A stretch of DNA of 64,000 bases from Candidatus Microgenomates bacterium (lineage in GTDB: Bacteria > Patescibacteriota > Microgenomatia > Levybacterales > UBA12049): the NCBI GenBank assembly GCA_025451195.1, contig JANWKV010000017.1:2471-66470 (forward strand). Direction: 5' to 3'. Position numbers and translations under genes: made by a program. This document shows, in pieces, positions 5,442 through 18,266 of this stretch. Position 1 is the first letter of the stretch, and every line of letters starts with the position of its first letter. The notes below the pieces were generated by a model, which saw only the letters and a program-made list of their open reading frames with translations, did no database searches and was not told the DNA's origin.

Positions 5442-6963
5442 AAGCACTAGGGGATACAAAAAAATATTTACGTTTTCAGAAGCAATTCTAAAAGGAATTG
5501 CCCCAGACGGAGGGCTTTTTGTGCCGGAAAGAATTCCACAATTTTCCTTGATTGATTTAAAAAATCTACAAAGCAAATCATACGACCAAGTTGCAAATTT
5601 TGTGATAAATCTTTTTGAACCGGACTTTTCAAAAAAAGAAATAGCACGAATGACGAAAAAAGCTTACGCCTACGGCGAAAATTTTGATGATAAAGAGATT
5701 GCACCTATTGTGCATTTAAAAGAAAATCAATATATTTTAGAACTTTGGCACGGATCAACATGGGCATTTAAAGACATGGCCTTGCAATTAATGCCCTTGC
5801 TTTTTTCTTATGCGATAAAAAAGGATAACAAAAAGCGCGTCTCAAGAAAAGAAAAACCACTCCAATACCTTATACTTGTTGCAACATCAGGTGATACGGG
5901 AAAAGCAGCTCTAGAAGGCTACAAGAGTAAGGACGACATTTCAATTATTGTTCTATTCCCAGATAAAAAAATCTCTTCAATTCAAGAGTTATCAATGACA
6001 ACCCAAGAGGGAAATAATCTTGCCGTGTATCCATTGCTTGGTAATTTTGACGACACTCAGAGGATTGTTAAAGAAATTTTTGATGATAAAAAATTCAACA
6101 AAAAGCTATTTAATGATTTTCAGACTACATTAAGTTCGGGTAATTCAATTAACTGGGGTCGCTTTCTCCCGCAAGTTATATACCATATAAGCAGCTATGT
6201 TAACTTAATAAGTCAGAATGTTATAAAAATTGGCGATGAGATTGATATTGTAGTTCCAACTGGAAATTTTGGAAATATTCTGGCAGGTTTTATTGCAAAA
6301 AAAATGGGCTTACCAATTAGAAAACTTGTTTGTGCATCAAATGATAACAATGTTTTATCAGAATTCATTCAAACAGGTAATTATGACCTTACTAAAAGAA
6401 AACTTGTGGTAACTTCGAGTCCTTCAATTGATATTCTCGTTGCAAGCAATTTAGAAAGACTTTTATATTTAATAACAAACAATTCTAATAAGATTAAACT
6501 ATGGATGAGGCAGTTAAAGTCAAAAAAGAAGTTTTTTGTAGATGACAATACTAAAAAGGTTTTGCAAAAAGAATTTTATGCGGACTGGGTTTCTGATAAA
6601 GATTCTTTAGAAAATATAAAAAATATTTTTGAACAATGTGATCGTCTGATTGACCCACATACGTCTATTGCGCAAAAAGTTGCTCAAGAATACATCAATA
6701 ATTACAACGTTAAATTGCCAATAATCATTCACTCAACAGCACACTTTGCAAAATTTGCAAGCGCGGTTTATTCAAGCTTATTTAGAAACAATCCAGAAAA
6801 ATTAAGTGAATTTGAGATGCTTAAAGCAATCAAAAAGTTATCAAAAAAAATTAAAATTCCTAGAAATATAGAAGATTTAAAGTCAAAAAAAATAATTCAT
6901 AAAGGAATATTAAATTCAAATAAAAAGGATGCCGAACGTGCTATTATTAGCATATTAAACTGA
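5428..6963 (+). CDS. thrC: Threonine synthase (long, 511 aa, PLP-dependent)
   Basis: N-terminus KYKSTRGY…GGLFVPE typical of ThrC; the pyridoxal-phosphate lysine lies in the WHGSTWAFKD context. Confidence 0.85.
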   Translation: MIKYKSTRGYKKIFTFSEAILKGIAPDGGLFVPERIPQFSLIDLKNLQSKSYDQVANFVINLFEPDFSKKEIARMTKKAYAYGENFDDKEIAPIVHLKENQYILELWHGSTWAFKDMALQLMPLLFSYAIKKDNKKRVSRKEKPLQYLILVATSGDTGKAALEGYKSKDDISIIVLFPDKKISSIQELSMTTQEGNNLAVYPLLGNFDDTQRIVKEIFDDKKFNKKLFNDFQTTLSSGNSINWGRFLPQVIYHISSYVNLISQNVIKIGDEIDIVVPTGNFGNILAGFIAKKMGLPIRKLVCASNDNNVLSEFIQTGNYDLTKRKLVVTSSPSIDILVASNLERLLYLITNNSNKIKLWMRQLKSKKKFFVDDNTKKVLQKEFYADWVSDKDSLENIKNIFEQCDRLIDPHTSIAQKVAQEYINNYNVKLPIIIHSTAHFAKFASAVYSSLFRNNPEKLSEFEMLKAIKKLSKKIKIPRNIEDLKSKKIIHKGILNSNKKDAERAIISILN

Positions 6964-7685
6964 TGAGAAATAAAATGAAACACATTGGAATTGCGGGAAT
7001 TACAGTGCCAGGTTCTCTACTTTGTATTAATACAATAGTTGAAGAAAGTTATAAACATTTTGGAAAAAAATCCATGATTCATCCCAGAATAACTTATACT
7101 AATCCTCCCTTTATTGACGTAGAAAAACCAATGGTGGAAAAAAAATGGGATCAAGTTGCGAAAGACTTATTGCTTTCTATTGATATTTTATATAGGGCTG
7201 GAGCTGATTTTGTTATTATTCCATCAAACCACCCTCATTACGCGATTGAAGAAATTCAACGAAAATCTCCTATTCCAGTTCTTAGCATTCTCGATATAAC
7301 TACTGCGGAATGCAGAAAAAGAAAGTTTAAAAAAGTAGGAATTTTGGGTGTAATTGGAACAATGGCCGGTGGACTATATATAGAACCGCTCAAAAAACAA
7401 GGACTTGAACCTTTGAATTTATCGCCTAAAAGGCAAAAAGAATTTAGTGATTTGATTTTCAATGAAATTATAATCGGCAAACCAGATAAAACAATCGGGG
7501 ATAAGATGCGAATTTTTATTCAAGAACTTAAAGATATGGGGGCAGATAGTTTTATAGCAGGTTGCACAGAGATACCTGTTGTTATTGCCAGCGAAAGTGA
7601 ATCACCTTTACCTTTTATCGATACGACAAGACTTTTGGCAAAAAAAGCATTAGAATACGCAATAGAAACAAAGCAAGAGAACTAG
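6963..7685 (+). CDS. Asp/Glu/hydantoin racemase-family protein (aspartate racemase-like)
   Basis: Asp_Glu_race fold. The first catalytic-Cys position reads PSNHPH (Ser, not Cys). The second, AGCTEIPVV, is intact. Confidence 0.65.
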   Translation: MRNKMKHIGIAGITVPGSLLCINTIVEESYKHFGKKSMIHPRITYTNPPFIDVEKPMVEKKWDQVAKDLLLSIDILYRAGADFVIIPSNHPHYAIEEIQRKSPIPVLSILDITTAECRKRKFKKVGILGVIGTMAGGLYIEPLKKQGLEPLNLSPKRQKEFSDLIFNEIIIGKPDKTIGDKMRIFIQELKDMGADSFIAGCTEIPVVIASESESPLPFIDTTRLLAKKALEYAIETKQEN

Positions 7686-7698
7686 TATAATATTACTT

Positions 7699-9468
7699 AT
7701 GGATAATCAAGATAAACAAAAATTAGAACATCTCAGACATTCCAGCGCCCATCTTTTAGCTGCAGCTGTAATTGACATTTGGCCACACGCCAAACAAACA
7801 ATCGGACCTGCGATAGAAAACGGGTTTTATGAGGATTTGGATTTGGGAGATATAAAAATTTCAGAGAAAGATTTTCCAAAAATTGAGCAGAAAATGCATG
7901 AAATAGTTAAAGGCTGGAAACAATTTGAAAGGATTGAAGTAAATAAAGAAGAGGCGTTAAAAGCTTTTTCAAAAAATGAATATAAACACGAACTCATTGA
8001 AGAATTTGCCAAGGATGGCAAAATCTTAACTATTTATAAATCAGGAGATTATGTAGATCTTTGCCGCGGAGGGCATGATATGGATCCGTCAAAAGATATT
8101 AAACATTTTAAACTTACGAAAATTGCCGGAGCATACTGGCGGGGATCGGAAAAGAACAAAATGTTAACAAGAATCTACGGGACTGCTTTTTATACAAAAG
8201 AAGATTTGGATAATTACTTAAAAATGCAGGAAGAAGCCGAAAAAAGAGATCATAAAAAAATAGGAAAAGAACTTGAGCTTTTTATATTTTCAGAAACATC
8301 TCCCGGGATGCCATATTTCTTGCCAAAGGGACTAATTGTTTTTAATGGACTACTAAATTTTTCAAGAAAAATGCATAAAGACTTTGGTTATGACGAAATC
8401 ATGACGCCTGTTATGTCCAAAAAGGCATTATACGAATCCTCCGGGCATTGGTTTCATTACAGAGAAGATATGTTTATTTCTCCAATGAGTTATCTTCGCA
8501 AGGATTCAAAAGACCCGTACGAGGGACAGGAAGTATTTGGCATAAAGCCCATGAATTGTCCCAATGCAATGACTGTTTTTGGATCAAAAACGCGAAGCTA
8601 CAGGGATTTGCCGATGCGGCTTGCAGAGACAACTGTTCTCCATAGATTTGAGCTTTCAGGAACACTGAATGGACTTTTTAGAGCAAGGGAATTTCATCAG
8701 GATGATTCTCATACATTTTTAGCGATTTCTCAAGTGGGGGAAGAGTTTGAAAAAATAATGGAAATGATTTCAATCTCTTATAGAGCATTTAATTTAAAAT
8801 ACAAGCTTAGATTTGGTACCAGACCGGAGAATTTTATGGGAGAGAGTAAAGACTGGGACATCGCAGAAAAAGAACTGCAAAAAGTTTTGGACAAATCCGG
8901 AGTTGAGTATTTTGTCGCCGAAGGTGAGGGAGCATTTTACGGACCAAAGGTAGATATTCTCATGAAGGATTCACTAGGCAGGGAATGGCAAACAGGTACA
9001 ATTCAACTTGATTTTCAGCAACCGAAGAATTTTAAACTTAAATATACAGATAACGAAGGTAAAGAAATTCAACCTGTTGTTTTCCATAAGGCAATTCTTG
9101 GATCGTTTGAGAGATTTATGGCTATTATTATTGAAGACTTGGAGGGTAAATTACCATTATGGCTTTCGCCTGTTCAGGTAGCGCTTTTGCCAATTACGGA
9201 CAGACACGAAGAATTTGCGAAAACCATAAGCGATCAACTAAAAACTATGGGCATTCGGACCATTGTTGACAGCAGCAAGGAAAGGCTTCAGGCCAAAATT
9301 CGTAACCACACTTTACAACGAACCCCGATTTTAGGTATAATAGGAGATAAAGAAATTGAGCAGAATGGTCTTTCCGTCAGAAGTAGAGATGGAAAAGACT
9401 TGGGGTTTCAAAAAATTGACGATTTTGTAGGTTTTTTACAAACACAAATTGATAAAAAGGTTTCATAG
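7699..9468 (+). CDS. thrS: Threonyl-tRNA synthetase (no N-terminal TGS domain)
   Basis: HSSAHLLA editing-domain motif, class II catalytic core, C-terminal anticodon-binding domain. Confidence 0.9.
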   Translation: MDNQDKQKLEHLRHSSAHLLAAAVIDIWPHAKQTIGPAIENGFYEDLDLGDIKISEKDFPKIEQKMHEIVKGWKQFERIEVNKEEALKAFSKNEYKHELIEEFAKDGKILTIYKSGDYVDLCRGGHDMDPSKDIKHFKLTKIAGAYWRGSEKNKMLTRIYGTAFYTKEDLDNYLKMQEEAEKRDHKKIGKELELFIFSETSPGMPYFLPKGLIVFNGLLNFSRKMHKDFGYDEIMTPVMSKKALYESSGHWFHYREDMFISPMSYLRKDSKDPYEGQEVFGIKPMNCPNAMTVFGSKTRSYRDLPMRLAETTVLHRFELSGTLNGLFRAREFHQDDSHTFLAISQVGEEFEKIMEMISISYRAFNLKYKLRFGTRPENFMGESKDWDIAEKELQKVLDKSGVEYFVAEGEGAFYGPKVDILMKDSLGREWQTGTIQLDFQQPKNFKLKYTDNEGKEIQPVVFHKAILGSFERFMAIIIEDLEGKLPLWLSPVQVALLPITDRHEEFAKTISDQLKTMGIRTIVDSSKERLQAKIRNHTLQRTPILGIIGDKEIEQNGLSVRSRDGKDLGFQKIDDFVGFLQTQIDKKVS

Positions 9469-10078
9469 ACAATTAGATACGAGAAAACAGTACAGGATAA
9501 ATGAACGCATTTGGGCGACTCAGTTACGTGTTTTGGACAATGAGGGTAAACAAGTCGGAGTACTTACAAGACAAGAGGCTTTACAAAAAGCAAAAGAAGA
9601 GGGCTTAGACTTAGTAGAAATTGCCCCGCTTGCCAAACCGCCTGTAGCCAAGATAATTAATTTTAACAAATTTTTGTATCAGGAAGCCAAGAAAAAGCAG
9701 GGAGAAAAGAAAAAGGCAAAAGTTTCTGACACCAAAGAAGTACGTCTTGGACCTTTTATGAGCGACAATGACTTACAGGTGAAGGTAGACAGAACCAAAG
9801 GATTTCTGGAGGATGGAGATAAGGTAAGACTAATTGTAAGATTTAAAGGCAGGCAGATTATCCATCCGGAATTTGGACATAAAATATTGAACAAAGTTTT
9901 TCTTGTTTTGTCTGACATATCTAAAGTAGATAAAACGCCAAAACTTGAAGGAAAACAACTTATTGCCATTATTTCACCGGAGAAGAAAGGCAAAAAAGCA
10001 GTAACAGAAGATAAAGACACAAATGCAGAAGAAAAAAATATACAAGTTACGGGTAAAACAGAAAACAATACTGAATAA
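9449..10078 (+). CDS. infC: Translation initiation factor IF-3, with a Lys/Glu-rich C-terminal tail
   Basis: …GLDLVEIAPLAKPPVAKIINFNKF… is typical IF-3. The ORF has no in-frame AUG; it begins at a TTG (9449) or ATA (9452) overlapping the thrS stop. Confidence 0.85.
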   Translation: MIKRFHRQLDTRKQYRINERIWATQLRVLDNEGKQVGVLTRQEALQKAKEEGLDLVEIAPLAKPPVAKIINFNKFLYQEAKKKQGEKKKAKVSDTKEVRLGPFMSDNDLQVKVDRTKGFLEDGDKVRLIVRFKGRQIIHPEFGHKILNKVFLVLSDISKVDKTPKLEGKQLIAIISPEKKGKKAVTEDKDTNAEEKNIQVTGKTENNTE

Positions 10079-10087
10079 AGTAAATAT

Positions 10088-10282
10088 ATGAAAAAGAAAA
10101 TAAAAAGATCGGTATCCAGAAGATTTAAAATTACAAAAACAGGTAAGGTAATGTTTAGCCACCAATACGGACAACATCACTTTGCTGTAAAATCCGGAAG
10201 CAGAAAAAGAAGGCTTAAAGAACCGGCTGTTTTAGCTAGAGGATTTGCAAAAAAGATAAAGAAGATGATGGGATATTTATAA
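10088..10282 (+). CDS. rpmI: 50S ribosomal protein L35
   Basis: 64-aa basic protein, MKKKIKRSVSRRFKITKTGKV…. Confidence 0.85.
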   Translation: MKKKIKRSVSRRFKITKTGKVMFSHQYGQHHFAVKSGSRKRRLKEPAVLARGFAKKIKKMMGYL

Positions 10283-10431
10283 AAATATGGCAAAACGGGG
10301 CCGAAACATAAATTTCCGGGAAACAAAATCAGAAAGATCGGCAACAAAGTCATATACAAATTTTAGAAAAAACGAAAAAAACTTTAAAAACGAAAATAAA
10401 AGTAAATTAGATATTAACAAAACAAAATAAT

Positions 10432-10782
10432 ATGAGAGTAACAAGAGGAAAAGTATCACATAGAAAACATAAAAAGCTCTTGGGCCTTGCAAAAGGTTAT
10501 AGGGGTAGCCGCAGTAGACTAGCGCGCACAGCCAAAGCAGCTGTTTTACATTCCGGCCAATACGCCTTTCAGGGTAGAAAAAATAAAAAAAGAGACTTTA
10601 GAGCTCTTTGGATTGTTCGAATTTCCGAAGCAGTTAAAAAAGAGGGAATTAACTACAGTACATTCATAAAAAATCTCAAAGCCTCAAAAATTATGTTGGA
10701 TAGAAAATCTCTTGCCGATTTGGTCTTAAACGATCCAAAAACATTCTCCGAAGTTGTCTCCAAAGTCTCCAAAAAATCCTAA
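10432..10782 (+). CDS. rplT: 50S ribosomal protein L20
   Basis: MRVTRGKVSHRKHKKLLGLAKGYRGSRSRL… is canonical L20. Confidence 0.9.
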   Translation: MRVTRGKVSHRKHKKLLGLAKGYRGSRSRLARTAKAAVLHSGQYAFQGRKNKKRDFRALWIVRISEAVKKEGINYSTFIKNLKASKIMLDRKSLADLVLNDPKTFSEVVSKVSKKS

Positions 10783-10809
10783 GTTTTACCAATTTAAAAC
10801 ACCCTATAG

Positions 10810-12498
10810 TTGATAAATCCACCCAGTTTTAATATAATACGACAAATGAAAAAGGAGGAACCTGTAGGTAGAACTAGGACACCTGGAACCGAGACAGAAA
10901 CGCAAAAACAAAGAGGTTTAGTAAAAACAGCCTCTGTTTTATCTTCAACTGGAGCATTATTAGATATACCAAGTAGAACGGTTGACTTTATTGCGGATGT
11001 TATTAGATATGGCGTAGATAAAAAGGAAGATTTTAGTCCTTACATTTCAAAAAGACGGGGCTGGAAAAGATTTGCTGCAAACATTCACGAAAACATTGCA
11101 GATCTGGATGATTACTTAAGTGGAGACGTAACTTATAAAGATATTGCAGCTAAAAGAAAGGTTGACGAAACTGCAATAGAACAGCGTATTCAAAAGACAC
11201 TTTATTTTTTGCGTGATGTTCTCTTAGCAACTCTTCCAGAAAGTATTCGATCTCAAAAAAGTATTGATTATGCGGTCTTACACGTAAGACATTTTCAAGA
11301 AACCCAGAGAAGAAGGCGCGAAGAAGCTGGAATAACCCCAACAACAAGAGTAAGACACTTTGACCAAACCGAAAGACTTCTTCAAATTGCACAAAGATCA
11401 AGTGAACTTGCAAGCCAGGGCTTGTCAAATACGCAAATTGCAAAAGCACTCCAACAAGATTTTCCCGGACTTAATGAGAACGCAATTAGATATGCTGAAA
11501 AACAATGGGCAGCAAGACAACAAGCGATAGCAGAAATGCCATTTGCCGATAAAGAACGCTTTGCAAACGGTTTAACGCTTATCAGACAACAAATAGAACA
11601 AGGATTATTCTTCCATCCGGATTTTACAGTTTATTCATTTATACGCGATGCGATACATTTCAACCTGGATAAAATTTTACTGAGCACACCCGTACAAATA
11701 AAAGCATTACGAAATATTCCGCGCATGATGGCAAATTTTGAAGGAGCAATAGGCCAGCACATGAGTACACCCGAGCTGGCAAAAGCTCAAGGGGTAACCG
11801 CCCAAAATATTTTGGAAGATGTTAAAAACCTAACCGAATTTTTACTTCGCTCAATGCCCCAAGAATTACAACAATGGTATAGAGGACAGGGATTAAGACT
11901 ACCAGGCCAACATGGGGACAGAACATTAATTCCAACTGCTGAGCAAAGGATTTTATGGAATAGACGCTATGAAGATCATGTTACAAGTTTTGAAGCCTCG
12001 CAAGAATTTTCTTCTCCTGAAGAATCAAGACAAACCGAACAGGATATACAGAGAATTGCTCTTCAGAAAATATTCCTTGCAGTATCTAAATCTGTCCCGG
12101 GAATTGCCATTTTCACTTATCAAATACCAACATTTGGTGTTAATCAAGAAATTCAAAATCCCCGCATAGGGTTTGTTTCGCGCGAGGATATTGCAATGGA
12201 AGATACACAAAACCTTTCCCACGAAGCACAAGTAGCTCTTGCCAAAGTTATGGGTGTAATTAGAAGTTCTCCTTCAACTCCTTCGTCAAGAGATAATGAC
12301 ACAATAGAAATTAATGAAAACCCTGGCGAAAATAACCAATTTACAAATCAACGGATGAAACGCGTTATTATAGCTATCGAAACTTCACGATGTAATTTTA
12401 CAAAAGACGAAAACGGTAATCTTATTGTCACAAACAAGAATGGTAACAAACTAACATCCTCGGAAGAAATAAGAAAAGTTATAGAATTGATTAGATAA
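10810..12498 (+). CDS. Hypothetical 562-aa protein with three sigma-70 region-4-like HTH modules, inserted between rplT and pheS
   Basis: HTH-like segments: YKDIAAKRKVDETAIEQRIQKTLYFL, GLSNTQIAKALQQDF…IRYAEKQ, MSTPELAKAQGVTAQNILEDVKNL. The protein is Q/R/A-rich and its GC content is visibly higher than its neighbours. Confidence 0.5.
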   Translation: MINPPSFNIIRQMKKEEPVGRTRTPGTETETQKQRGLVKTASVLSSTGALLDIPSRTVDFIADVIRYGVDKKEDFSPYISKRRGWKRFAANIHENIADLDDYLSGDVTYKDIAAKRKVDETAIEQRIQKTLYFLRDVLLATLPESIRSQKSIDYAVLHVRHFQETQRRRREEAGITPTTRVRHFDQTERLLQIAQRSSELASQGLSNTQIAKALQQDFPGLNENAIRYAEKQWAARQQAIAEMPFADKERFANGLTLIRQQIEQGLFFHPDFTVYSFIRDAIHFNLDKILLSTPVQIKALRNIPRMMANFEGAIGQHMSTPELAKAQGVTAQNILEDVKNLTEFLLRSMPQELQQWYRGQGLRLPGQHGDRTLIPTAEQRILWNRRYEDHVTSFEASQEFSSPEESRQTEQDIQRIALQKIFLAVSKSVPGIAIFTYQIPTFGVNQEIQNPRIGFVSREDIAMEDTQNLSHEAQVALAKVMGVIRSSPSTPSSRDNDTIEINENPGENNQFTNQRMKRVIIAIETSRCNFTKDENGNLIVTNKNGNKLTSSEEIRKVIELIR

Positions 12499-12694
12499 AA
12501 TGGTTATAGAAATCATTCTCAAGATTTTCAAAAAATTCTAACTACGTTTTTCTAAACTTAGCCAAAAGTTGTAATTTCTACTATAAATTGTAAATTATAG
12601 TGTCTCATTATACTTACTTTTCTTTCCAATTCAAAAACTTTCTAATTGGGATTAGGAAAAGTTATGCTCTAATACTTAATCTTGCTTAATTGAC

Positions 12695-12724
12695 TTTCGC
12701 AAAATCGAGCATGAGTGGTATAAT
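12695..12724 (+). promoter_or_regulatory. Promoter-like element with an extended -10 (TGgTATAAT); the same ~30-nt motif recurs at 46958-46990
   Basis: TTTCGCAAAATCGAGCATGAGTGGTATAAT versus TTTTGCAAAATCAAGTATGAGTGGTATAAA. The -10 ends 6 nt before the pheS ATG. Confidence 0.4.
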
Positions 12725-12730
12725 TGCCCC

Positions 12731-13792
12731 ATGGAAGAAAATTTGTTGCAAATAAAAAATGACGCGCTTTCTCTAATCTTTGAAACAGAAGATCCAAAAA
12801 GTTTGGAGGAATTAAAATTACAATTTTTAGGTCGCAGTGGTCGGTTAACCCTGGCTTTTAAAGAAATTGCAGGATTGCCTCTGGAAAAACGAGCCGAAAT
12901 TGGAAAACTGGGAAATGAAATAAAAAAAGTAATTGAAGACGCAATTGCAGACCGGGCAATGGAGCTTAAAAAATCCGCACAAAAAAAACAGAAAAATAAT
13001 CTTGATATTACAAATCCTGGCATAAAACCTCCTCTTGGTCATTTACATTTAGTAACTCAAGCAATTGAAGAAATTACAAGTATCTTTGAGAAAATTGGTA
13101 TAACAAGGGTCAGGTACCCGGAAGTGGAATGGGATTATTATGCATTTACAGCTCTCAATTTCCCGGCTAATCACCCGGCCCGAGATGACTGGGAAACGTT
13201 TTTTACAACAGACAACACAGATAGTAAAAAAGGTCAAATTGTTTTAACGCCGCATACCAGTAACGGCCAGGTAAGAGAAATGGAAAAAGCTGTTGAAGAA
13301 AGTAAAAAAACAAAAATGCCAATAAATATAAGAATGCTAAATATTGCCAAATGTTACCGCAGACAGTCCGACGTTTCCCATACCCAAATGTTTCATCAGT
13401 TTGAAGGGCTAGTTGTTGGAAAAAATATTTCCATATCACATTTAAAAGGAGTTTTGGAATATTTTGTTAAATCATATTTTGGCGAAAAAAGAGAATTTAG
13501 AATAAGACCTTATCATTTTCAGTTTACAGAGCCTTCTTTTGAAATAGATGTTACGTGTGGAGTGTGTCTTGGCAAAGGATGCAAACTTTGCAAAGCAGGT
13601 TGGCTGGAAATGGGAGGCGCTGGAATGGTACATCCAAACGTATTAAATTATGGAAAAATTGATCCAACAATTTATACGGGCTTTGCTTTTGGTTGGGGAG
13701 TAGAAAGGGTTTTGATGATGAAAGAAGGAATAGAAATTGATGATCTTCGCCTTTTGTATAGCAATAAATTAGAGTTTTTAGAACAGTTTTAG
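12731..13792 (+). CDS. pheS: Phenylalanyl-tRNA synthetase alpha subunit
   Basis: FTALNFPANHPARDDWETFF and class II motifs. Carries a CGVCLGKGCKLC 4-Cys insert. Confidence 0.9.
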   Translation: MEENLLQIKNDALSLIFETEDPKSLEELKLQFLGRSGRLTLAFKEIAGLPLEKRAEIGKLGNEIKKVIEDAIADRAMELKKSAQKKQKNNLDITNPGIKPPLGHLHLVTQAIEEITSIFEKIGITRVRYPEVEWDYYAFTALNFPANHPARDDWETFFTTDNTDSKKGQIVLTPHTSNGQVREMEKAVEESKKTKMPINIRMLNIAKCYRRQSDVSHTQMFHQFEGLVVGKNISISHLKGVLEYFVKSYFGEKREFRIRPYHFQFTEPSFEIDVTCGVCLGKGCKLCKAGWLEMGGAGMVHPNVLNYGKIDPTIYTGFAFGWGVERVLMMKEGIEIDDLRLLYSNKLEFLEQF

Positions 13793-15994: not shown

Positions 15995-18226
15995 TTACGG
16001 TGTAGGAGTAGGTGTTTGCGTGCCGGACGGATTTAAAAGGTCTGCAGGAGGATACCATTGGTAATCTGCTGCGGAATGAGTACGTTTTATCCAATCATCT
16101 ATTCCTTGTTGCCATCTATTCTGTCCATCTGTAGAAACAGGATCGTCTTCTTTTACAACGTAATATGTTTTTCCGTCCTTCTCTTGATAAAAAGGGGATA
16201 CAGAAGTTGGTTCCGTACCTTTAATAAAATATTCTGACCTTGTTGGCATATCTTTATAAGGTAGACCTCCAAACAAACTGTCTATTGTAACTGCTATAAC
16301 ATCATCCGGTTTTTGAGGAGGCTCATCTTTTTTCCCTTTTAATACATAAGACATTATTTTATTCCAAATTGGCGAAGCACCTGTCTCACCGCTTGATATT
16401 GCCTGATTCATAACAGAATTGTCATTGTTGCCAACCCAAACACCTACAACATATGACGGTGTGTAACCAATTGCCCAGTTATCTCTTTTTTCATCTGTTG
16501 TTCCTGTTTTAACGCTGACTGTTTTACCCGGCACAACAAGCCAGGAATTTGGCCCAAAATCCATGGTGCGGGCGTTATTATCCAGAAGAATGTGGGATAT
16601 TAAAAATGAAACTTCGGGCGACAAAACTCTTGGGCCTGGTTGTGGATGCGCTTGATACAAAACATTACCGTGACTGTCGGTAACTTTTAGTATAAAAATC
16701 GGGTCTTGCCTAATTCCTTCGTTTGCAAAAACACCGTATGCTGTTACTTCGTCTAAAAGCGTTGTTTCCCGCCCTCCCAGCACAAGAGATAAACCAACAT
16801 CCTGAACATTTTCAGGTGTTGGGTCCCAATTTTGAATTCCCATTTGGTACCCTTGCTGCATAACATCCCGAATTCCAACTCGTGCAAGCATTTTTACGGC
16901 AGGAATATTTAGAGAATTTCCAAGCGCAAAACGTAACTGCTGAGGTCCATGGTCTTTTCCGTCATAATTTACCGGAGTATAAATTGGATTTTTGGGATCA
17001 CCCGATGGAAAATCTGTCTTTACATCCATAACTACACTGCCGGGAGTATAACCCTTTTGGAAAGCAACTGCATACATAATAGGTTTAAGCGAAGATCCGG
17101 GCTGTCTGTTGGCAACAGCGGCATTAAAATTTCCATCGTTTGCCGTGTCAAAATAATCTTTAGACCCAACCATGCTAAGTATTTCTCCGGTTTTTGCGTC
17201 GGATACAATCGATGCTCCATTTCCAACATGGTAATCCTTTAATTTGTCTATTTCCGTATTTACAATATTTTCGGCCTGTTTTTGAATAGAATAATCAAGT
17301 GTTGTTGTAACCTGTAATCCTCCATTTTCCACTTGTTGGTCTGTAAAGTGAAGTTGATTAATTAGAAGTTGTTTTACATACATAACAAAATGTGGAGCTT
17401 TAATAGACGTATTATTGTCGGAAAATACCATCGCTTTTATCTCACTTAATGCACTATCAGATTGTTTTTGTGTTATATATCCATCTGCTACCATTTGAGC
17501 CAATACATCTTGAGACCTGCCAATATAATACTTATTTCCGCTTAGAGGATTATATATACTTGGGCCTTGCGGCAACCCCGCAAGAAGAGCACATTGGGCT
17601 AAATCCAAATCGTTTACATGCTTTCCAAAATAAGTTTCCGATGCCGCTTCAACTCCAACATTTGCACCGCCATACGGAACATCATTAAGATACATTTCTA
17701 AGATTTGGTCTTTACTGTATCTTTTGTCTACCTGAATGGCCAAAATTAATTCTTTTATTTTTCTGGGAAGTGTACGCTCTGAAGATATAAGTGTATTGCG
17801 AACTAATTGCTGTGTAATTCCGGAGCCGCCGGTAACTCTACCTTCTAAAACAATATCTTTAATTACACGAAGGTAACTAAGCGGAGAAAATCCTTGGTTT
17901 GAGTAGAAATTTTTATCTTCTATTGCAATAGTTGCGCTTTGTAGATTTTTAGGAATATCGGAAAGATTTACATAAACTCTGTTTTGCGAGGCATAAACCG
18001 AATATAATAGTATACCTGTTCTATCAAAAATCCGTGTTGATTCCGCTTCTTGTGCTGTAACCAACTTACCAGGCGTTGGTAAATCCCTGCTGTACCAAAT
18101 AAAAGCCACTACCGTAAGTATAACCAAACCTATAAGGGCGTAGAATGCGTATGTTGTTAGTTTGCTAAAAAGAACAATTCTTGACCCTCTGAGGGCAATT
18201 CTTTGTCTCCTGCTCTTAAAACCCAT
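15995..18226 (-). CDS. Class A penicillin-binding protein (bifunctional glycosyltransferase/transpeptidase, PBP1A-like)
   Basis: N-terminal transmembrane segment; GT51 motifs (…GGSGITQQLVRN…); transpeptidase SxxK (GSSLKP), SLN and KTGT motifs; Pro/Thr-rich C-terminal tail. Confidence 0.85.
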   Translation of the reverse strand: MGFKSRRQRIALRGSRIVLFSKLTTYAFYALIGLVILTVVAFIWYSRDLPTPGKLVTAQEAESTRIFDRTGILLYSVYASQNRVYVNLSDIPKNLQSATIAIEDKNFYSNQGFSPLSYLRVIKDIVLEGRVTGGSGITQQLVRNTLISSERTLPRKIKELILAIQVDKRYSKDQILEMYLNDVPYGGANVGVEAASETYFGKHVNDLDLAQCALLAGLPQGPSIYNPLSGNKYYIGRSQDVLAQMVADGYITQKQSDSALSEIKAMVFSDNNTSIKAPHFVMYVKQLLINQLHFTDQQVENGGLQVTTTLDYSIQKQAENIVNTEIDKLKDYHVGNGASIVSDAKTGEILSMVGSKDYFDTANDGNFNAAVANRQPGSSLKPIMYAVAFQKGYTPGSVVMDVKTDFPSGDPKNPIYTPVNYDGKDHGPQQLRFALGNSLNIPAVKMLARVGIRDVMQQGYQMGIQNWDPTPENVQDVGLSLVLGGRETTLLDEVTAYGVFANEGIRQDPIFILKVTDSHGNVLYQAHPQPGPRVLSPEVSFLISHILLDNNARTMDFGPNSWLVVPGKTVSVKTGTTDEKRDNWAIGYTPSYVVGVWVGNNDNSVMNQAISSGETGASPIWNKIMSYVLKGKKDEPPQKPDDVIAVTIDSLFGGLPYKDMPTRSEYFIKGTEPTSVSPFYQEKDGKTYYVVKEDDPVSTDGQNRWQQGIDDWIKRTHSAADYQWYPPADLLNPSGTQTPTPTP

Positions 18227-18266
18227 ACAAATATTATAACTATCTAAAGCCGTTAAGGCAATAAAT

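Follow-up and report, generated by a model that had tools for sequence, protein, structure and literature searches.

Why does a long open reading frame (ORF) that matches only itself in the protein databases stand between rplT and pheS, and does it break up a conserved operon? The question is raised by a 64-kb stretch of DNA from a Candidatus Microgenomates bacterium (contig JANWKV010000017.1 of assembly GCA_025451195.1; hereafter the window), in which the + strand is open without interruption from 10810 to 12498, or 562 amino acids (aa) counted from TTG. An initial annotation had described this frame, here called the orphan, as a protein with three sigma-70 region-4-like helix-turn-helix (HTH) repeats that interrupts the highly conserved thrS-infC-rpmI-rplT-pheST operon. 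We find that the rplT-pheS junction is variable across the Levybacteria, that the orphan is preceded by a promoter match of its own and that past it lies a degenerate second copy of the rplT 3' end. Taken as a whole, the locus is explained best, and with moderate confidence, as an accessory cassette with its own promoter, an insertion scar and HTH-type modules; the orphan would then be a lineage-restricted accessory gene and not the disruption of a conserved operon.

An intact gene with no database relative

The orphan is a genuine, intact gene. It is read as a real coding sequence because it holds 550 open codons in AT-rich DNA (about 36% guanine plus cytosine, GC) and because GC content falls from the first to the third codon position (GC1 > GC2 > GC3), as it does in the neighbouring genes. 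Its start is most likely the ATG at 10846, the first in the frame, and not the listed TTG at 10810, which is probably wrong because it falls in the −35 hexamer of the promoter match. The sole database entry for the protein (P0001, in a cluster of one member) likewise has 550 aa and starts at ATG 10846, and residues are numbered on this version unless stated. The placement of the ORF between rplT and pheS, as initially annotated, was confirmed by NCBIfam identification of both neighbours (Table 1) and of thrS, infC and rpmI upstream and pheT downstream, each of which scored above its cut-off.

A word-index search of 5.8 billion protein clusters and a phmmer (HMMER) search of 1.84 billion sequences that represent about 15 billion proteins (E ≤ 0.001) each returned the orphan protein alone. 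No relative was found in PDB sequences, PADLOC, metagenome contigs, phage records or plasmid records, and a profile built from the three segments S1, S2 and S3 described below retrieved none from the 5.8 billion clusters. Searches of Pfam, NCBIfam and PHROGs yielded sub-threshold matches only, no PADLOC anti-phage defence model was matched (E up to 1), and the window holds no paralogue or second copy. Origin by duplication of a neighbouring gene was considered and rejected, as tblastx and blastn comparisons of the insert with the rest of the window gave chance-level matches only. Literature searches for Levybacteria orphan proteins, for leaderless mRNAs of Patescibacteria and for an rplT-pheS hotspot yielded nothing relevant.

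The rplT-pheS junction in Levybacteria

The relatives of the window's PheS belong to Candidatus Levybacteria (Levyibacteriota; Patescibacteria, candidate phyla radiation, CPR), with a best identity of 82-83%. We located rplT and pheS in 160 related loci (L001-L160), and the gap between the two genes was measured in the 114 loci that hold both. It is shorter than 150 bp in 37 of these, 150-400 bp in 14, 400-1000 bp in 42 and at least 1 kb in 21, so that 63/114 loci have a gap of at least 400 bp with varied cargo; the whole range is 43 to 4232 bp. A further 17 loci have no rplT within 3 kb of pheS. Interruption at rplT-pheS is thus the rule in Levybacteria and not the exception, and with gaps below 150 bp in only 37/114 loci the premise of a highly conserved operon fails in this group.

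Pfam confirms a GreA-type factor among the junction cargo of 11 loci and a NUDIX hydrolase in that of 8; inspection of translations adds ORFs like CysRS, aminotransferase, prephenate dehydratase and others. ORFs of 75-370 aa that are mutually unrelated and have no Pfam family occupy the gap in L006, L017, L034, L037, L055, L060, L066, L077 and others, and one 75-aa junction ORF is common to four loci (L018, L023, L047 and L077). None of the cargo ORFs of the 160 loci resembles the orphan, and the check for the same gene at the same position in relatives, which the initial annotation had proposed, was negative in every one of them. Among the closest relatives found (PheS 75-83% identical) almost all gaps measure 75-262 bp and are without the orphan; the exceptions, L004 with a gap of 507 bp and L006 with one of 676 bp, both carry other small ORFs.

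Several relatives reveal how the junction is organized. A strong terminator, consisting of a GC-rich hairpin and a T-run, lies 20-40 nucleotides (nt) past the rplT stop codon in L001, L002, L003, L005, L007, L008, L081-L083, L085 and L087. These loci encode PheS proteins 77-83% identical to that of the window and have a −10 box 6-9 nt before the pheS ATG. Because a terminator follows rplT and a −10 box precedes pheS in these relatives, the junction is a boundary between transcription units and not the interior of an operon.

A scar of the rplT 3' end

The last 33 nt of rplT (10750-10782) recur in decayed form just past the orphan (Table 1). All mismatches between the two copies are transitions (11/11, compared with 30% expected for unrelated sequence of like composition). 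A match of at least 17/22 to the core of the repeat arose in 5/20,000 shuffles of the 232-nt intergenic region, and at up to 5 mismatches the core 22-mer matches nowhere else in the window. The insert so delimited measures about 1.73 kb (10783 to about 12508) and comprises a 27-nt stretch, the promoter and the ORF. The relic is contained in frame in a mini-ORF of 13 codons, MVIEIILKIFKKF, which ends in a stop codon (12500-12541) and begins 2 nt past the orphan stop; its first 15 nt (12503-12517) resemble the orphan's own last codons (12478-12492) at 87%.

A scar of the same kind is present in L014, where genes for a PIN-type (VapC-like) toxin (6632-7033, − strand) and its antitoxin (7030-7275, − strand) stand directly after rplT, between two direct copies of the rplT 3' end that extend over 73-95 nt and are 89% identical (6539-6620 and 7318-7411). 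Downstream of the toxin-antitoxin pair in L014 are a GNAT-like ORF and then pheS. That two unrelated cargos, the orphan and the L014 pair, bear like scars argues for duplication of the rplT end upon insertion here; rplT 3'-end relics were sought in all other cargo-bearing loci, and L014 alone has one. Integrative elements that enter the 3' ends of genes leave a direct repeat of that end, and the orphan insert is flanked by just such a repeat of its target gene. A Campbell-type or att-like event would produce the duplication. The orphan insert is not bounded by terminal inverted repeats, and neither it nor the L014 insert holds a recombinase; the orphan itself has no integrase or recombinase match in Pfam, NCBIfam or PHROGs. 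Two further assignments, made by eye, were dropped after shuffle tests gave them no support, namely the 63 nt before the ORF as a remnant of the relatives' rplT terminator and pheS promoter, and the sequence after the relic as the relatives' post-rplT motif.

Acquisition of the gene, as suggested initially, is thus supported by its absence from 160 loci and by the decayed rplT 3'-end duplicate after the insert, but not by the GC content on which the suggestion had been based. The supposedly clearly higher GC content of the orphan (0.378) compares with 0.379 for rplT, 0.368 for thrS and 0.357 for pheS, within a span of 0.288-0.430 for the genes of the window, and its GC content at third codon positions (GC3, 0.249) is ordinary for the window. 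The small GC excess is confined to codon positions 1 and 2 and therefore reflects amino-acid composition. The Q/R/A-rich make-up was described correctly: these three residues account for 23.3% of the protein, the highest value among the 56 window ORFs of at least 100 aa (typically about 13%), and K, I and N together for a low 18.9%. Base composition shows no sign of recent foreign origin; the amino-acid make-up alone is unusual.

The decay of the relic also bears on selection. Relic and working rplT end differ by 0.33 per site. In 49 codons of the orphan a single transition would create a stop, and in neutral simulations its frame stayed open in 92/20,000 runs at 0.1 transitions per site and in 2/20,000 at 0.17. 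Purifying selection on the orphan is supported because its frame is intact while the adjacent relic has diverged, and the gene has apparently been kept open by selection.

Promoter and expression signals

The promoter match directly upstream of ATG 10846 is the best site between 9400 and 13000 (Table 1). A TATAAT box ending 6-7 nt before an ATG is found not only at the orphan, but also at thrS (7699), pheS (12731) and the gene ending at 18226 (− strand), and Shine-Dalgarno sequences are scarce among the genes of the window. Of the 157 pheS starts compared in Levybacteria, 31 have a good −10 box at the 6-7 nt spacing, against about 2 per other spacing. The orphan probably uses this clade-native signal and would give rise to a leaderless or near-leaderless transcript. 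That it rides on the translation operon is not supported, given its own promoter match and the transcription-unit boundary at the junction in relatives. The relatives listed above have a strong terminator past rplT; in the window, by contrast, no terminator can be recognised before or after the orphan.

No Rfam family was found near the ORF and no T-box or leader before pheS; the region 12490-12735 folds marginally better than shuffles (z = −2.0). The 11-mer AWTTGTAAWTT, a motif defined after the repeats had been seen, has 4 exact matches in 64 kb against 1.8 expected. Three of these and a one-mismatch copy fall in 490 nt across the orphan 3' end, the pheS promoter region and the first pheS codons, and they could be operator-like sites.

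Predicted architecture of the orphan protein

The protein has an isoelectric point (pI) of 8.7, is predicted to be cytoplasmic and consists in the model secondary structure of about 58% helix, with a small strand-rich C-terminal part. Its basic parts are the N-terminus, the linker 139-178 and the C-terminal 53 residues, the last of which are preceded by an acidic low-complexity linker (aa 469-497). The protein has no hydrophobic stretch of the length or character of a membrane helix. With a single cysteine, no HxxxCxxC zinc motif and no membrane helix, the suggestion of an anti-sigma-like factor found no support.

The three HTH-like segments are where they were initially placed, each as a short helix, turn and long helix, from about aa 97, 195 and 309. 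For S1, sub-threshold sequence matches were obtained with Sigma70_r4_2 (15.6 bits, cut-off 25.7, E = 0.013), HTH_AsnC and UPF0122/YlxM, and the YlxM model NF045758 scored 17.1 bits (cut-off 80, E = 0.0042; aa 99-134 in 562-aa numbering). Three independent HTH models converge on aa 87-123. An AlphaFold2 prediction of S1 with S2 and S3 as the only alignment rows reached a predicted local distance difference test (pLDDT) score of 88.4. The Foldseek check proposed for a predicted structure was made with S1 against PDB and viral models: almost all neighbours are HTH proteins, none of them a significant match (E > 0.4), as is expected because the segment has only 63 residues. They include the Trp repressor, sigma region 4 of AlgU, SigK, SigL, SigR and SigD4, SigF, the YlxM-like protein 1s7o and, among LuxR-type domains and again without significance, DosR, EvgA, TraR and RcsB. 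Root mean square deviations (rmsd) among these neighbours fall to 0.6-1.4 Å over 32-51 columns. Sigma-4 domains near S1 have template modelling (TM) scores of 0.65-0.73, all with E > 1; for SigD4 the values are TM 0.73 and rmsd 1.4 Å.

Each of the three segments has weak PHROG matches among DNA-binding or regulator families; those of S2 and S3 are phrog_1368 'transcriptional regulator' (E = 0.0074) and phrog_7061 'HTH DNA binding protein' (E = 0.28). The description as three sigma-70 region-4-like HTH repeats thus stands in part. One module with a predicted sigma-4/HTH-type fold (S1) is defensible on the basis of its model and its HTH neighbours, in spite of sub-threshold sequence scores, and two more are plausible (S2 and S3), for which an HTH fold may be inferred although neither has a Pfam HTH match.

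Membership in known families was tested for the whole protein. It scored below the Pfam Sigma70_r4_2 gathering score, with one segment only, and showed no Sigma70_r2 match even at E up to 10; Pfam gave no LuxR/GerE HTH and no UBA match, and no entry named UBA was among the Foldseek top 50 of S1 in either library. Nor did we find inverted repeats, a transposase family (Pfam, NCBIfam, PHROGs) or a second copy in the window or databases that would point to a transposase or insertion sequence. By the tests run, the orphan is outside the sigma-70, LuxR, YlxM, anti-sigma and transposase families. Within the ORF, two copies of a 27-nt repeat, 66 nt apart, suggest a small local duplication. Duplication of a module of about 210 aa was also considered. 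Local self-alignments cluster at offsets 207-218 and the score of the two halves was equalled by 5/500 shuffles, but a band test over all offsets was not significant (17/200, with the best band at a different offset), and this duplication remains a weak hint.

Table 1 Features of the orphan locus, in window coordinates
Feature	Position	Strand	Remarks
Orphan ORF	10846..12498	+	550 aa from ATG; self-only database matches; GC3 0.249
Decayed duplicate of rplT 3' end, right-hand scar	12509..12541	+	22/33 nt identical to 10750-10782; TAA in frame
Orphan promoter-like site	10810..10838	+	TTGATA-17-TATAAT, 11/12 matches; −10 box ends 7 nt before ATG 10846
pheS promoter-like site	12696..12724	+	extended −10 (TGgTATAAT), ends 6 nt before ATG 12731
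TATAAT-to-ATG sites	7680-7701, 10833-10848, 12719-12733, 18226-18245(−)		candidate leaderless-type starts
S1, aa 74-136	11065..11253	+	predicted sigma region-4-like HTH; helices aa 80-91, 97-104, 108-129
S2, aa 172-237	11359..11556	+	HTH-like, turn about 5 residues longer; also resembles UBA three-helix motif
S3, aa 283-343	11692..11874	+	HTH signature Ala-5, Gly-9, Val-10, Ile-15 by inspection
Basic C-terminal part, aa 498-550	12337..12495	+	pI 9.9; predicted strands then helix, low confidence; no family match
Internal 27-nt repeat	11284-11310 and 11350-11376	+	78% identical; encodes VRHFQETQR / VRHFDQTER, basic linker
AWTTGTAAWTT	12338-12348(−), 12567-12577(+), 12586-12596(+), 12815-12825(−)
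rplT (ribosomal protein L20), left neighbour	10432..10782	+	NCBIfam TIGR01032, 129.8 bits, cut-off 65.65
pheS, right neighbour	12731..13792	+	NCBIfam TIGR00468, 244 bits, cut-off 237.45

Origin and role of the orphan

We propose that a compact one-gene cassette of about 1.73 kb, comprising promoter and ORF, entered directly past the rplT stop codon, at a boundary that in Levybacteria is a break between two transcription units and repeatedly accepts unrelated cargo. The insertion would have duplicated the rplT 3' end, with the left copy still ending the working gene and the right copy decaying by transitions. Transcription of the orphan would probably start at its own sigma-70-type promoter and yield a leaderless or near-leaderless mRNA, in the layout of its neighbours. 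The gene product would be a cytoplasmic, mostly helical protein in which three-helix modules of the sigma region 4/HTH type (at least one, probably three) are set apart by basic linkers and followed by a small basic end domain. Its likeliest role is that of a transcription-associated HTH-repeat protein, and its activity is most likely the binding of nucleic acid or of the transcription machinery, as a regulator or as a cassette-borne accessory factor.

Several observations weigh against this proposal. The number of promoter sites in 9400-13000 is not above that in shuffles or expected by chance, and rplT transcripts might read through into the orphan, or into pheS, because no recognisable terminator stands on either side. 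The estimate of selection assumes that the repeat copies were identical at insertion, and it may be that a divergent foreign copy was brought in, which would void the age estimate. As to the protein, the full-length single-sequence AlphaFold2 model has a pLDDT of 38 and is unusable for fold search, and the model of S1 was built from just three alignment rows, all of them segments of this one protein with only 17-21% mutual identity. No sequence or structure match of the orphan is significant, its Pfam and NCBIfam scores are far below cut-offs, and S2 and S3 lack any Pfam HTH match. Finally, the S1-S3 profile matched the Cbl UBA domain with E = 3e-4 and HTH proteins only with E of about 1, and the segments have pI values of 5.2-6.8, with acidic residues opening the putative recognition helices, which is unusual for an HTH that contacts DNA.

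The last two points would be accounted for if the three-helix modules were protein-protein units, UBA-like or degenerate sigma-4-like and no longer able to bind DNA, of an adaptor or mimic that occupies, for example, the sigma-4 docking site on RNA polymerase or attaches to another partner; the orphan would then not be a regulator that recognises specific DNA sequences. The Cbl UBA match extends over the full length of that domain, S3 alone finds it as well (E = 0.92), and the acidic to neutral segments are without the basic recognition-helix residues typical of sigma region 4. Judging from the alignment, however, the UBA match appears to be driven mainly by the S2 stretch SSEL..SQGLS..QIAKAL, whereas the S1 model retrieves HTH DNA-binding domains almost exclusively, with no named UBA in the top 50, and three HTH family models converge on S1. 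We consider a protein-interaction role of this kind unlikely, but still to be reckoned with. The insertion scar raises a different alternative, namely that the ORF derives from a mobile element, as its remnant or passenger, and is either a divergent transposase or recombinase with N-terminal HTH domains or the last gene left of a larger integrated island that targeted the rplT 3' end. The direct repeat of the target gene 3' end around the insert, the same scar around the toxin-antitoxin cassette of L014, and the occurrence of multi-HTH N-termini in transposases (the IstA transposase HTH is among the Foldseek matches) are all consistent with it. Yet the boundaries have no terminal inverted repeats, the databases searched reveal no transposase, integrase or recombinase domain, the window holds no second copy, and GC3 and promoter layout look native. 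Moreover, to have no relative among 15 billion proteins would be very unusual for a mobile-element enzyme, and we assign this origin a quite low probability.

It is extremely improbable that the ORF is non-functional, a chance open frame or decaying relic picked up by gene callers, even if it has no homologues, a poor full-length model and no assigned family. By our estimate about 7% of random codons would be stops, so that 550 open codons are unexpected by chance; the codon-position GC pattern is that of real genes, the near-consensus promoter sits exactly where those of thrS and pheS do, one segment (S1) folds confidently in prediction, and the frame has stayed intact beside a relic diverged by 33%. 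At the other extreme, one could speculate that the rplT 3' end in Levybacteria is the attachment site of an undescribed, integrase-less process of cassette capture, which would duplicate that end and of which the orphan and the toxin-antitoxin pair of L014 would be two independent instances. The orphan would then found a class of proteins with repeated, non-basic sigma-4-like modules that target RNA polymerase and not DNA, as sigma-4 mimics or anti-sigma-like factors, a combination that we regard as very doubtful.

If the accessory cassette with HTH-type modules is the correct explanation, the orphan would be a well-documented true orphan gene in a CPR bacterium, whose entry point, expression signals and maintenance by selection are all legible in its sequence. 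Its product may widen the range of architectures made of sigma-4/HTH-type modules. The textbook arrangement thrS-infC-rpmI-rplT-pheST is not fixed in Levybacteria; accessory genes have landed repeatedly at the rplT/pheS boundary, and the two scars seen there suggest a mechanism by which the 3' end of rplT is duplicated. Both variable junctions and orphan proteins are frequent in CPR genomes, which keeps the practical significance modest. Among the by-products, the recurring scar at the rplT 3' end and the leaderless layout of the promoters are of most interest.

Comparison with known systems

Three protein families come closest to the predicted modules. The UBA domain of Cbl ubiquitin ligases (2oo9, 2juj) is of the same size, has three helices and is the best match of the S1-S3 profile over the full UBA length, but it is a eukaryotic ubiquitin-binding domain, and the S1 model retrieves no entry of that name in its top 50. 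YlxM/UPF0122 (1s7o, SP_1288) provides the best NCBIfam match, a Pfam UPF0122 match on S1 and a structural neighbour with TM 0.69; YlxM proteins, however, are single-domain proteins of about 100 aa, whereas the orphan has 550 aa and the match spans 36 residues. With region 4 of extracytoplasmic function (ECF) sigma factors (Mycobacterium tuberculosis SigD4, 3vep, and SigL, 3hug; Streptomyces coelicolor SigR, 5fgm), the predicted S1 module shares a helix, a short helix, a 3-residue turn and a long helix, at TM 0.66-0.73 and rmsd 1.3-1.4 Å over 46-51 columns, no match being statistically significant. Sigma70_r4_2 is also the top Pfam sequence match of the orphan, at a score far below the family cut-off. 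Unlike ECF sigma factors, the orphan has no region 2, is about three times their size, may hold the module three times, and has modules that are acidic to neutral and not basic.

The insertion itself recalls the e14 element and phage 21 at icd in Escherichia coli, as the orphan insert also lies directly past the stop codon of its target and is followed by a non-functional copy of the 3' end. It differs from them in that its 1.7 kb hold no integrase or other element gene and in that its repeat, of 33-45 nt, is 33% diverged. The toxin-antitoxin cassette of L014 is a counterpart within the Levybacteria, with the same site after rplT, compact cargo of similar scale and the same type of repeat. Its proteins are unrelated to the orphan and are encoded on the opposite strand. 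With a long repeat that has diverged by only 11%, the L014 insertion is much more recent than that of the orphan.

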